IMG/VR virus record: IMGVR_UViG_2563366883_000001 | Coordinates: 1 to 5,037 of that record | Strand: one strand, 5' to 3' | Length of the DNA stretch: 5,037 nucleotides | DNA from: a virus | Lineage: Duplodnaviria > Heunggongvirae > Uroviricota > Caudoviricetes | Shown: positions 2,506 through 4,642 of the stretch, in pieces | Position numbering within the stretch: the stretch's first letter is position 1 | Layout: every line of letters begins with the position of its first letter | Notes under the pieces: model-generated | The model's database searches: none | What the model saw: only the letters and a program-made list of their open reading frames with translations | Told to the model about the DNA's origin: nothing | Position numbers and translations under genes: made by a program

Positions 2506-3021
2506 ATGGCGTTAACACACCACGAACTCTGTCAGATTGCGTACAAGTTCCTTAAGCGCAACGGGTTCAAGGTTTGCTTTCATGACCGCTTTGTTGCTGT
2601 AACCAGTACCGGAGAACAGCCAGATGCTATGGGATTCAGAAATTCAGCATCATGCCTGATAGAGGCGAAGTGTTCTCGTGCTGACTTGTTGGCAGATAGA
2701 AAAAAGCGTTTCCGTAAAAATCCCTCACTTGGCATGGGCGACTGGCGATTCTTTATTAGTGAGCCGGAAATTATTTCAGTTGAGGATTTACCTCCCGGCT
2801 GGGGATTACTTCACGTTGTTAACGGAAGAGTACGGAAAGTACATGGATGGCCCAGGGGTAATTGCTGTTGGGGTAATCCTGACGATAAGCCATTTACTGG
2901 GAATAAGCAGGTTGAATGCGATTACATGTTATCTGCATTAAGGCGCATGGAGTTGAGAGGGCACCTTAATGAAATATATGACGGTGTGATTGTTAATAAG
3001 AAAGAAGGAAACGCGGCATGA
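2506..3021 (+). CDS. PD-(D/E)xK-motif putative nuclease (possibly MmcB-like)
   Basis: ATG 2506 with AAGGAG at 2494-2499; the ATG at 2473 lacks an SD. Motif GEQPDAMGF ... CLIEAKCSRADLL fits E...PD...(D/E)xK of restriction-endonuclease-fold nucleases. Stop overlaps the next ATG (ATGA). Confidence 0.7.
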   Translation: MALTHHELCQIAYKFLKRNGFKVCFHDRFVAVTSTGEQPDAMGFRNSASCLIEAKCSRADLLADRKKRFRKNPSLGMGDWRFFISEPEIISVEDLPPGWGLLHVVNGRVRKVHGWPRGNCCWGNPDDKPFTGNKQVECDYMLSALRRMELRGHLNEIYDGVIVNKKEGNAA

Positions 3022-3926
3022 TCACTATTACCAAAGGGCGACTGCTGACAATCAAGCAGTGGCGCGAAACATACGGACCGGGTAGCAACGTTGTACTGCC
3101 AGCAGAAGAAGCGGAAGAACTGGCACGAATTGCACTGGTATCGCTGGAAGCAGAGCCGGTGGCAAAGATTATAGCTCATTACCCATTAGGAGTTGACGTA
3201 GGCAAACAAAAGTTCGTACAGGCCATTGGAGAGCTTCCTGACTTTGGCGGATATCTATTTGCCGCCCCGCCAGCGCCGGTAGTGCCGGAAGAAGCAACTC
3301 CGGAAAACGTAGAAATGCTCTCTGGCTATGTTTCCACGTACAAATTAACCGATAGCGAGCGCGATATTGCTGCCGAAATATGGAACGCCTGCCGCACCGA
3401 CATGCTTCAGTCCGGAAACTTTCGGGAAAGCAAGAATTCGTCAACCAATAATTTTCGGGAAATCCCGGAAGCGTCAACCAGCTCTCCGGTAACTCCGGCT
3501 CTTCTGCCTGGTGGTTTCACCATTGAGGAGGCGAAGGAATTACATGAAGACCTGGTACGCAGCCACATAAGCAAGGCCTTAAGTGGCGAAAAGATGAAAA
3601 AGAAAGATCGCGATGCTGATTTGCGCTGGATTCATGGCGTTATAGTTCAGGCAGCGTGGTTTGTAAAAGCATCACTGGAGCAGAATGCACTATCGGGCAA
3701 CTCTCCGGTAACTCCGGATGGTTGGATAAGCTGTAGTGAGCGAATGCCGGATGATGGTCAGCACGTAATTATTTTATGTGATGGCGCATTCGTTCTTTAT
3801 GCGCAATATCGAGACGGTGAGTTTTTTGATGTAGTCCGTAATGGTGATGAATTTTTCGAAACACAGAGCCGCAATGTAACCGACTGGATGCCGTTACCAG
3901 AACCGCCGCAGGAGGTGCGCCAATGA
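3018..3926 (+). CDS. DUF551 domain-containing mosaic phage protein
   Basis: C-terminus DGWISCSERMPDDGQHVIILCDGAFVLYAQYRDGEFFD...VTDWMPLPEPP matches the DUF551 signature (W-x-S...LP...THWMPLPEPP). SD AAGGAA at 3004-3009. Contains two in-frame 17-bp direct repeats, each encoding SPVTP. Confidence 0.8.
   Translation: MITITKGRLLTIKQWRETYGPGSNVVLPAEEAEELARIALVSLEAEPVAKIIAHYPLGVDVGKQKFVQAIGELPDFGGYLFAAPPAPVVPEEATPENVEMLSGYVSTYKLTDSERDIAAEIWNACRTDMLQSGNFRESKNSSTNNFREIPEASTSSPVTPALLPGGFTIEEAKELHEDLVRSHISKALSGEKMKKKDRDADLRWIHGVIVQAAWFVKASLEQNALSGNSPVTPDGWISCSERMPDDGQHVIILCDGAFVLYAQYRDGEFFDVVRNGDEFFETQSRNVTDWMPLPEPPQEVRQ
3482..3717 (+). repeat. Pair of 17-bp direct repeats (ctctccggtaactccgg) inside the DUF551 gene
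   Basis: Exact copies at 3482-3498 and 3701-3717, in the same reading frame, each encoding SPVTP. They flank a ~200-bp segment encoding a charged, helix-like module. Confidence 0.7.
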
Positions 3927-4006
3927 TCTGGCCTGAAGCATTTGCAATTACAGGCGTTGCTATGGCTATCGCTTTTTTAGTATATGTTATTTGTCGGTGT
4001 GGGTAA
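3923..4006 (+). CDS. Predicted 27-aa hydrophobic peptide (MIWPEAFAITGVAMAIAFLVYVICRCG)
   Basis: Not in the ORF track (too short). ATG 3923 overlaps the DUF551 stop (ATGA) and is preceded by GGAGG at 3911-3915 (7-nt spacer). Hand translation gives a single hydrophobic helix, stop TAA 4004-4006. Confidence 0.35.
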   Translation: MIWPEAFAITGVAMAIAFLVYVICRCG

Positions 4007-4146: not shown

Positions 4147-4154
4147 ATTCATTA

Positions 4155-4176
4155 CGATATGGGAATTCCCATATCG
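4155..4176. repeat. 22-bp perfect palindrome cgatatgggaattcccatatcg centred on GAATTC
   Basis: Every position pairs across the centre at 4165/4166. Lies between the 34-aa small ORF and the predicted hok promoter. No U-tract on either side. Confidence 0.6.
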
Positions 4177-4187
4177 GGTAAAAACGG

Positions 4188-4216
4188 TTTGCGGTAAAGC
4201 GAGAGTTAAGTAGAAT
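4188..4216 (+). promoter_or_regulatory. Putative sigma-70 promoter of the hok/mok mRNA
   Basis: -35 TTGCGG (4189-4194), 16-nt spacer, -10 TAGAAT (4211-4216, 5/6 to consensus). The predicted start site near 4222-4224 coincides with the 5' segment that is complementary to the mRNA 3' end. Confidence 0.45.
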
Positions 4217-4234
4217 TGCTGCGGGTGCTTGAGG

Positions 4235-4270
4235 CTGTCTGCCTCGGGCATGCCACCGTAAGGCAGACAG
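4235..4270 (+). promoter_or_regulatory. hok mRNA leader stem-loop
   Basis: 10-bp perfect stem ctgtctgcct (4235-4244) / aggcagacag (4261-4270) with a 16-nt loop. Lies in the predicted 5' leader upstream of mok. Confidence 0.5.
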
Positions 4271-4277
4271 AGAAAAG

Positions 4278-4343
4278 CCCCAGTTAACATTATGCGTCTT
4301 GCAGGACGCTTAACATTAATCTGAGGCCAATTTCATGCTAGCC
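4278..4343 (-). ncRNA. sok: Predicted Sok-like antisense RNA (approximate bounds)
   Basis: Inferred from the antisense promoter and from the sokC/mokC arrangement I recall. Would be complementary to the mok start codon and SD (4321-4337). The minus strand has a small hairpin (plus coordinates 4294-4309) and a U-rich stretch from plus 4270-4278. Ends not determinable from sequence alone. Confidence 0.35.
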
Positions 4344-4547
4344 ACATGTAGGTTAGCCTCTTACACGCCGAAAGGCAAGGAGAAGCAGGCTATGAAGCAG
4401 CAAAAGGCGATGTTAGTCGCCCTGATCGTCATCTGTATTACCGTCATTGTGACGGCACTGGTAACGAGGAAAGACCTCTGCGAGGTACGAATCCGAACCG
4501 GCCAGACGGAGGTCACTGTCTTCACAGCTTACGAACCTGAGGAGTAA
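4335..4547 (+). CDS. mok: Mok-like regulatory reading frame (in-frame upstream extension of hok)
   Basis: 70-aa ORF from the track, MLATCRLASYTPKGKEKQA followed by the Hok sequence. As I recall, chromosomal Mok proteins such as MokC have this in-frame extended layout. GAGG at 4323-4326 lies 8 nt upstream of ATG 4335. Confidence 0.5.
   Translation: MLATCRLASYTPKGKEKQAMKQQKAMLVALIVICITVIVTALVTRKDLCEVRIRTGQTEVTVFTAYEPEE
4350..4378 (-). promoter_or_regulatory. Putative Sok antisense promoter
   Basis: On the minus strand: -35 TTGCCT (plus coordinates 4378-4373), 17-nt spacer, -10 TAACCT (4355-4350). Placed inside the 5' part of mok, where sok promoters sit in known hok loci. Confidence 0.35.
4392..4547 (+). 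CDS. hok: Hok/Gef family type I toxin, closest to HokD (RelF)
   Basis: 51 aa, MKQQKAMLVALIVICITVIVTALVTRKDLCEVRIRTGQTEVTVFTAYEPEE. From memory this is near-identical to E. coli HokD/RelF and very similar to HokC/Gef. AAGGAG at 4376-4381 lies 10 nt upstream of ATG 4392. Confidence 0.9.
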   Translation: MKQQKAMLVALIVICITVIVTALVTRKDLCEVRIRTGQTEVTVFTAYEPEE

Positions 4548-4615
4548 GAGACCTGGCGGGGGAGAAATCCCTCGCCACCTCTGATGAGTCAGGCATCCTC
4601 AACGCACCCGCACTT

Positions 4616-4642
4616 AACCCGCTTCGGCGGGTTTTGTTTTTT
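4616..4642 (+). terminator. Rho-independent terminator of the hok mRNA
   Basis: Stem aacccgc (4616-4622) / gcgggtt (4627-4633) with UUCG tetraloop (4623-4626), followed by the T-rich run ttttgtttttt through 4642. Confidence 0.8.

Follow-up and report, generated by a model that had tools for sequence, protein, structure and literature searches.

The closest studied relative of the locus described here is hokW-sokW, carried by the Stx2 prophage Sp5 and by 933W-type phages (Takada et al., 2021; PMC8621323). The hokW-sokW of Sp5 is a working type I toxin-antitoxin (TA) system whose toxin appears after RecA-dependent induction and which approximately doubles phage release (PMC8621323). Its antisense RNA, sokW, is reported to have 71 nt complementary to the hokW leader (PMC8621323), and the sokW promoter-less ("pro-less") mutant, obtained with primer YO-421, alters exactly the -10 hexamer TAACCT (Takada et al., 2021; PMC8621323). 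The hok/sok (parB) system of plasmid R1 is plasmid-borne and has a proven role in post-segregational killing. Experimental proof that Hok is toxic and is neutralized by Sok, and of cleavage by RNase III and trimming of the mRNA 3' end, comes from such relatives only, hokW-sokW (PMC8621323) and R1 (PMC9841398). Chromosomal hok loci of E. coli have been reported not to cause post-segregational killing, and several of them are inactive. Furthermore, a recent survey listed 44,248 homologues of Hok and reported that they are enriched in prophages.

The stretch of DNA analyzed here, called the window, has 5037 bases, and its positions 4189-4642 very probably constitute an intact hok/mok/sok type I TA module with a HokD-type toxin and a SokW-type antisense RNA. 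According to the sequence, the predicted folds and the homology, every element of a hok/mok/sok system is found within these positions and none of them is damaged. A preliminary description of this DNA had proposed a hok/mok/sok locus that is self-contained and encodes a HokD-like toxin, and its main parts (a TTGCGG-N16-TAGAAT promoter, a leader with a 10-bp stem-loop, an in-frame mok-like frame, a 51-residue Hok and a terminator with a UUCG loop) were all recovered. The features are the following:

4189-4216, + strand: hok/mok promoter, read directly from the sequence; -35 TTGCGG (4189-4194), 16-nt spacer, -10 TAGAAT (4211-4216)
4223-4642, + strand: full-length hok mRNA of about 414-420 nt, with presumed start at G4223 and end at the terminator T-run
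4223-4234, + strand: tac (translational activator), GGGUGCUUGAGG, which has fbi as its partner in the full-length minimum free energy (MFE) fold
4235-4270, + strand: leader stem-loop, with a 10-bp stem (4235-4244/4261-4270) and three further pairs, present in the fold and in the Rfam consensus
4271-4343, - strand: predicted Sok antisense RNA of about 73 nt, with a 5' tail (4343-4329), a long hairpin (4328-4276) and a U-rich 3' tail
4275-4281, + strand: ucb (upstream complementary box, anti-Shine-Dalgarno of mok), AAGCCCC
4323-4326, + strand: mok Shine-Dalgarno (SD), GAGG, 8 nt upstream of the mok ATG and sequestered in the full-length fold
4335-4547, + strand: mok frame of 70 codons, which extends hok N-terminally, in frame, by 19 codons
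4350-4378, - strand: Sok promoter; -35 TTGCCT (4378-4373), 17-nt spacer, -10 TAACCT (4355-4350)
4356-4360, + strand: dcb (downstream complementary box), GCCUC, complementary to GAGGC (4323-4327) at the mok SD and matching the Rfam consensus
4377-4382, + strand: hok SD, AAGGAG, where the homology with K-12 hokD starts
4392-4547, + strand: hok coding sequence (CDS), a 51-residue HokD-type toxin
4597-4609, + strand: fbi (fold-back inhibition), CCUCAA(C)GCACCC, partner of tac and retained in K-12 hokD
4616-4642, + strand: intrinsic terminator, a 7-bp stem capped by a UUCG loop and followed by a T-run, common to K-12 hokD and PPompW

The hok CDS is identical to that of RefSeq WP_052977210.1, annotated as HokD, and its product covers the whole Pfam HOK_GEF profile (PF01848; positions 1-42 of 42) with 79.7 bits over a cut-off of 22 (E=1.2e-22). 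It also matches PHROG 251, "MokW-like host killing" (E=5e-32). No Hok model of NCBIfam reaches its cut-off, the best being a Hok-family subfamily model with 46.8 bits against a cut-off of 73, and therefore the name HokD rests on sequence identity: the toxin of the window and K-12 HokD share 48 of 51 residues, the differences being I9V, L16I and A42T. The mok ATG at 4335 has its own SD and lies 57 nt before the hok ATG at 4392, in the same frame, so that mok overlaps hok. The 19-codon extension is kept in 33 of 49 homologous loci and shows a conserved motif, RLASYxPKGKE.

The leader gives a strong match with Rfam family RF01794: on the + strand, 4223-4397 covers the complete model (1-157 of 157), and the 117.3 bits obtained (E=4e-27) exceed the gathering score of 59. 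Despite being named "sok", RF01794 models the sense-strand hok leader as far as the hok AUG. The consensus structure of the model is that of the "open" leader and comprises the tac/ucb stem, the target hairpin of the mok SD and dcb, a small hairpin and the complement of the Sok hairpin. Two other Rfam matches were discarded. A minus-strand match with the same "sok" model at 4150-4281 (18 bits, E=0.79) is an artefact of the palindromic leader hairpin, and an isrK-like match on the 3' untranslated region (UTR) was not accepted, with 27 bits against a threshold of 50.

The hok promoter matches the consensus at eight of 12 positions. The promoters of hok and Sok are both sub-consensus, weak matches that a generic promoter scan missed, and they were accepted because of their homology with those of hokW and sokW and not by their consensus score. 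In the hok promoter region, hokW agrees with the window at 25 of 28 positions, including both hexamers, and PPompW at 23 of 28, with one base different in each hexamer. The -10 hexamer ends 7 nt before G4223, which is most likely the first nucleotide of the hok mRNA, judging from homology with the R1 5' end and from the start of the Rfam model. The preliminary description had placed the start at 4221. At the other end of the transcript, the terminator forms the hairpin AACCCGC-UUCG-GCGGGUU (4616-4633), followed by the T-run.

The folding of the mRNA was analyzed with the RNA elements as defined for R1-type systems (PMC9841398). Positions 4221-4234 are complementary to 4597-4611 by 14 pairs with a single bulged C at 4603, as had been described previously for the two mRNA ends. 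In the MFE fold of 4223-4636 (-179.6 kcal/mol, z=-8.4 compared with shuffled sequences), 12 of these pairs, joining 4223-4234 with 4597-4609, were recovered with probabilities of at least 0.97 (0.97-1.0), and a tac duplex as strong as this one appeared in only seven of 5000 shuffles of the 3' UTR. On the basis of these pair probabilities, the z score and the shuffles, the pairing between the mRNA ends is real and not due to chance. This fold, which the preliminary description had proposed as a check, also shows the sequestration of the mok SD: the segment around the mok SD (4321-4327) is paired with that of ucb (4277-4283). The hok SD is likewise paired in the full-length MFE (4378-4382 with 4358-4362).

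The leader is also predicted to adopt other conformations. The MFE of the nascent 30-mer is a metastable hairpin of -18.8 kcal/mol (z=-5.0) that hides tac and joins 4225-4235 to 4241-4251, while the MFE of the 63-nt 5' domain is the tac/ucb stem (-34.2 kcal/mol, z=-5.0). A Sok-target hairpin is predicted at 4323-4360, with the mok SD at its base and closed by dcb. The unconstrained MFE of 3'-truncated window mRNAs does not show an open tac/ucb form, and neither does that of the experimentally characterized R1, used as positive control, so that this outcome says little about the window RNA. Constrained folding tells more: for the window mRNA, the cost of opening is 17.1 kcal/mol at full length and 2.9 kcal/mol after 3' truncation, and in the R1 control 15.7 and 3.5 kcal/mol, respectively. 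Since these switch energies are so similar, the window RNA behaves in quantitative terms like the R1 paradigm. A local fold around a UACG editing motif gave no stable hairpin (z=+0.9), and a tRNA-like TadA substrate at this motif is thus without structural support.

The tac/fbi pairing is furthermore maintained by covariation. A scan with one genome per species found 57 loci in Escherichia, Shigella, Kluyvera, Citrobacter, Photorhabdus, Pantoea and Erwinia, and where the tac motif is present its best 3' partner lies 45-56 nt past the hok stop codon. The pair GGGUGCUUGAGG / CCUCAAcGCACCC of Escherichia corresponds to GGGCGCUUGAGA / UCUCAAGCGCCC in Photorhabdus, which represents two compensatory changes. 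Compensatory changes are seen in the Photorhabdus, Pantoea and R1 homologues, the R1 pair being GGCGCUU / AAGCGCC.

On the opposite strand, the predicted Sok would start at 4343 and extend to about 4271. An antisense RNA around 4280-4343 had been anticipated in the preliminary description; its start agrees with our prediction, its extent does not. The Sok hairpin has a predicted energy of -31.7 kcal/mol (z=-4.4), and the Sok promoter is identical to that of sokW in 27 of 29 positions, including the mutationally validated -10 hexamer TAACCT. In K-12, the annotated sokC overlaps the mokC start codon by 9 nt, the same geometry as the predicted Sok of the window. The predicted Sok of about 73 nt is supported by this geometry of sokC, by the 71-nt complementarity of sokW and by the shared -10 hexamer. 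Among 13 distinct long-hairpin Sok variants, the variable columns are concentrated in the Sok 5' tail (11 of 19, against seven of 51; Fisher p=4e-4).

Comparison with the known systems shows that hokW-sokW has the architecture of the window locus, the same hexamers in the hok promoter and in the Sok promoter (-35 and -10), a long Sok hairpin and a toxin of 51 residues. Sequence identities are 85% in the leader, 92% in the hok CDS and 91% from the stop codon to fbi, with 89% over the elements from the promoter to fbi (4189-4611). Both loci are prophage-borne and co-oriented with the early operon. However, HokW ends in VFVDYESEK and the window Hok in VFTAYEPEE, the sequence past fbi in hokW is unrelated to the terminator region of the window, and hokW is located in the left (ea/int-side) arm whereas the window hok lies between the replication genes and Q.

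The K-12 hokD (relF) gene of the cryptic prophage Qin occupies the slot of the window locus, upstream of DUF968 (ydfU) and Q, and shares with it a nearly identical 3' UTR, fbi and terminator. However, K-12 hokD is devoid of promoter, tac, ucb, mok start and Sok, and relBE abuts the hok SD instead. In agreement with the earlier claim that K-12 HokD stands behind relBE without its own mok and sok, homology in the Qin alignment starts at about 4378, in the hok SD and directly after relE, and continues through the terminator. Therefore, the window locus represents the intact form and K-12 hokD a 5'-truncated remnant. The "gef" locus of PPompW and Stx2a phages (LC567818 and relatives) is also found at the window's position, between the replication genes and rusA-Q, and has the same 22-bp palindrome upstream. 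Its Hok is identical to K-12 HokD, and it has almost the same 3' UTR and terminator as the window; however, its Sok and leader are of the short hokC-like type (33 of 73 positions identical to the window over the Sok region), and unlike in the window a rem gene follows hok. The window locus thus appears as a mosaic, with a leader/Sok module of the hokW/P1-like type, which has the longer hairpin, and a hok CDS, 3' UTR and terminator of the K-12 hokD/PPompW type.

Two further systems, against which an alignment had been suggested, share the same plan. The K-12 hokC/mokC/sokC (gef) has an in-frame mok with the 57-nt offset of the window, the same tac sequence and a sokC that overlaps the mok start as predicted for the window Sok. 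Its Sok hairpin is shorter, its toxin has 50 residues (about 85% identical at the DNA level), and it is cut by IS186 before fbi, whereas the window copy is intact. R1 hok/sok has tac, fbi, ucb, dcb, the metastable hairpin and a Sok promoter inside mok, as in the window, and the computed energetics of its closed-to-open switch are very similar. Its hok CDS is only about 52% identical to that of the window at the DNA level, and its tac and fbi differ yet stay complementary.

The window is found in the E. coli JE86-ST05 chromosome (1198201-1203237) and in three other genomes, with the exception of one base (4342, C vs T). In JE86-ST05, the hokD gene is preceded by genes for replication protein P, DUF1627, DUF4406, an Ea22-like protein, DUF551 and a small ORF, and followed by a hypothetical gene, those for DUF968, RusA and antiterminator Q, and then tRNAs and genes of the lysis region. 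The arrangement corresponds to the nin-type region of a lambdoid prophage, and bears out the previous placement of the locus in a prophage gene block. Within the window itself, Pfam matches were obtained for DUF1627, DUF4406, Ead/Ea22 and DUF551. We can state with confidence that the intact module is an accessory gene (moron) of a lambdoid E. coli prophage, with replication genes on one side and Q on the other.

Orientation was compared in six lambdoid phage or prophage contexts. In all of them hok points in the direction of the early-operon genes that flank it, although in two an opposite-strand gene lies immediately upstream of hok. The delayed-early operon that runs along hok is the one from pR to Q in the window and the pL operon in 933W-type phages. 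In the P1-like phage-plasmid, hok is co-oriented only with its upstream genes.

The locus is of an already known, ordinary and very common kind, being frequent in E. coli and its phages, with catalogued homologues and a relative, hokW-sokW, proven to work. A 551-nt region containing it was matched in 4734 of 5426 complete E. coli genomes, and at least 80% of this region is present in 3271 of the 5426, in up to 11 places per genome; among the E. coli matches listed, the annotation is hokD. Furthermore, 101 phage records match, including Stx-converting phages, with the names "MokW", "host killer protein", "gef" or "HokD toxin", and the locus is also found on IncY P1-like phage-plasmids.

A locus with intact sequence could nevertheless be functionally silent, carried passively by a decaying prophage and never making toxic amounts of Hok. 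The sub-consensus character of both promoters fits such a relic, as do the several neighboring prophage genes that RefSeq marks as frameshifted or partial and the chromosomal hok loci that failed at post-segregational killing and were proposed to be inactive. However, unlike K-12 hokD or the IS186-cut K-12 hokC, no element of the window locus is damaged, which makes a silent relic improbable. In addition, conservation of the pairing, of the reading frames and of the Sok promoter extends over thousands of genomes and to several genera, and hokW-sokW, which is 89% identical over 4189-4611 and shares both promoter -10 elements, is an active system (PMC8621323).

With the window locus taken as a functional module, a mechanism can be proposed by homology with R1 hok/sok and Sp5 hokW-sokW. 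The weak promoter would produce a stable mRNA of about 415 nt, in whose nascent form the metastable hairpin would hold the 5' tac. Once the transcript is finished, tac would pair with fbi near the 3' end, locking the RNA in a closed fold that keeps the ribosome-binding sites of both mok and hok base-paired. Slow 3' trimming would remove fbi, and the 5' end would then pair with ucb while the target hairpin of the mok SD and dcb forms. Sok, of about 73 nt and transcribed from the convergent promoter inside mok, would bind the mok translation start, and the Sok-mRNA duplex would be destroyed by RNase III. When Sok is gone, mok would be translated and hok would follow by translational coupling, and Hok would depolarize the inner membrane. 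We infer transcription, 3' processing and toxicity for the window copy, as well as its biological role; the molecular mechanism of the locus as hok/mok/sok is well backed.

The biological role is much less well supported than the mechanism. The most likely one, which we propose tentatively, would be to help with lysis and phage release after prophage induction, as described for hokW-sokW; it is favored because of the analogy with this closest studied relative. A second proposal, which we regard as somewhat doubtful, is addiction: upon loss of the prophage, the short-lived Sok would be lost and the stable mRNA would yield Hok, leading to post-segregational killing. The chromosomal hok loci that were tested did not produce such killing, and the deletion of hokW-sokW in Sp5 shifted the kinetics of lysis and release, an effect on stability not being reported (PMC8621323). 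The main role could also be abortive infection or exclusion of superinfecting lytic phages, and this we consider unlikely; here, shut-off of host transcription would deplete Sok and trigger Hok before the cycle of the invader is completed. Exclusion agrees with the abundance of defence genes in prophages and with the lower plating efficiency and plaque size of T4 reported in the presence of R1 hok/sok; however, the Hok survey did not find hok enriched near defence systems, and defence-system neighbors were not seen in the window or its flanks according to Pfam matches and the JE86-ST05 annotation.

As a discovery, the locus carries little weight: its toxin is named in RefSeq, its protein family is catalogued as PHROG 251, its leader is an Rfam family and hokW-sokW has been characterized. 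Its use is that of a clean, intact reference for K-12 hokD before relBE displaced its 5' half. It also reveals an annotation gap, since the RefSeq JE86-ST05 record, the one matching record examined, contains the hok CDS only, and mok, Sok and the RNA elements are absent from it.

The co-orientation of hok with the early operon has a consequence for Sok, whose promoter therefore faces early transcription head-on, and this suggests a route for the removal of Sok at induction. At prophage induction, transcriptional interference could stop Sok, or read-through sense RNA could titrate it. In addition, the hypervariable Sok 5' tail could be a specificity code that allows up to about 11 copies per genome to coexist without cross-talk. 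The joint reading, in which head-on early transcription silences Sok at induction and the Sok 5' tail serves as a specificity code, is speculative and, in our judgement, has a low probability. If true, interference would account for the hitherto unexplained loss of sokW that follows induction in a RecA-dependent manner, and Hok would act as an induction-coupled lysis timer.

According to sequence similarity, the hok/mok/sok type I toxin-antitoxin locus in window 4223-4642 is a mosaic. Its leader and Sok module is nearest to hokW (85% identity), the experimentally studied relative in the Stx2 prophage Sp5, and to the P1-like copies (82%). The hok coding sequence, 3' UTR and terminator are nearest to the 5'-truncated hokD of K-12 and to PPompW, with identities to the latter of 97, 97, and 94%, respectively. 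This pattern implies recombination between the antitoxin half and the toxin half.

Four features were delimited upstream of the locus, with the two small ORFs directly upstream of it:

3018-3926, uninterrupted ORF of 302 aa with a C-terminal DUF551 domain
3923-4006, small hydrophobic ORF of 27 aa
4042-4146, small hydrophobic ORF of 34 aa
4155-4176, perfect 22-bp palindrome CGATATGGGAATTCCCATATCG with an EcoRI site at its centre

A gap of 12 nt separates the palindrome from the downstream hok -35 element, and an identical 22-bp palindrome (~3007-3028) precedes the gef locus of PPompW (L006). Neither strand has a T-run after the palindrome at 4155-4176, therefore it is not a classical terminator, and it might be a protein-binding site. 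No family matches were found for the 27-aa and 34-aa ORFs; an ORF with a similar start also precedes hokW in Sp5, as seen from primer YO-432. Within the 302-aa ORF, CTCTCCGGTAACTCCGG occurs as a direct repeat at ~3481 and ~3699, and RefSeq annotates the region of this ORF as two "incomplete" DUF551 pseudogene pieces.

In the toxin half, the Tyr47 codon of hok (UAC) and the following G form an in-frame UACG (window 4529-4532), which is kept in every intact homologue examined. TadA A-to-I editing, changing this Tyr to Cys, was reported for hokC, hokD, and hokE mRNAs (PMC12214031). Local folding predicted no stable hairpin around the motif (z=+0.9). The hok 3' UTR (window 4556-4637) gave a full-length hit to isrK, a prophage sRNA of Salmonella, but its score was weak (27 bits, E=0.006) and below the threshold of 50 bits; the resemblance is probably due to chance. 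In lambdoid prophages, both the hok 3' UTR and isrK precede genes of the Q region.

Orientation was compared among loci L001, L003, L006, L007, and L065-L068. hok is co-oriented with the flanking early-operon genes in the six lambdoid phage or prophage contexts examined, two of which show an opposite-strand gene immediately upstream; in the P1-like phage-plasmid (L007), its orientation agrees with the upstream genes only. Co-orientation places the Sok promoter head-on against early-operon transcription. The loss of sokW after induction was described as being of unknown cause (PMC8621323).

The sole difference between the window and the nearest database genomes is a C instead of T at 4342, which changes mok codon 3 (Ala in the window, Val in those genomes) and also alters position +2 in the predicted Sok RNA. 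Since both RNAs are encoded in cis, sense/antisense complementarity is unaffected. The Sok region (window 4271-4343, minus strand) was compared with loci L003, L007-L021, and L065-L068. Across 13 distinct long-hairpin variants, 11 of 19 columns vary within the single-stranded 5' tail of Sok and the mok start, compared with seven of 51 hairpin columns (Fisher p=4e-4), and copies sharing one genome differ mainly within that same tail and start. The variability of the Sok 5' tail could reflect merely weak constraint, or else diversification of specificity.
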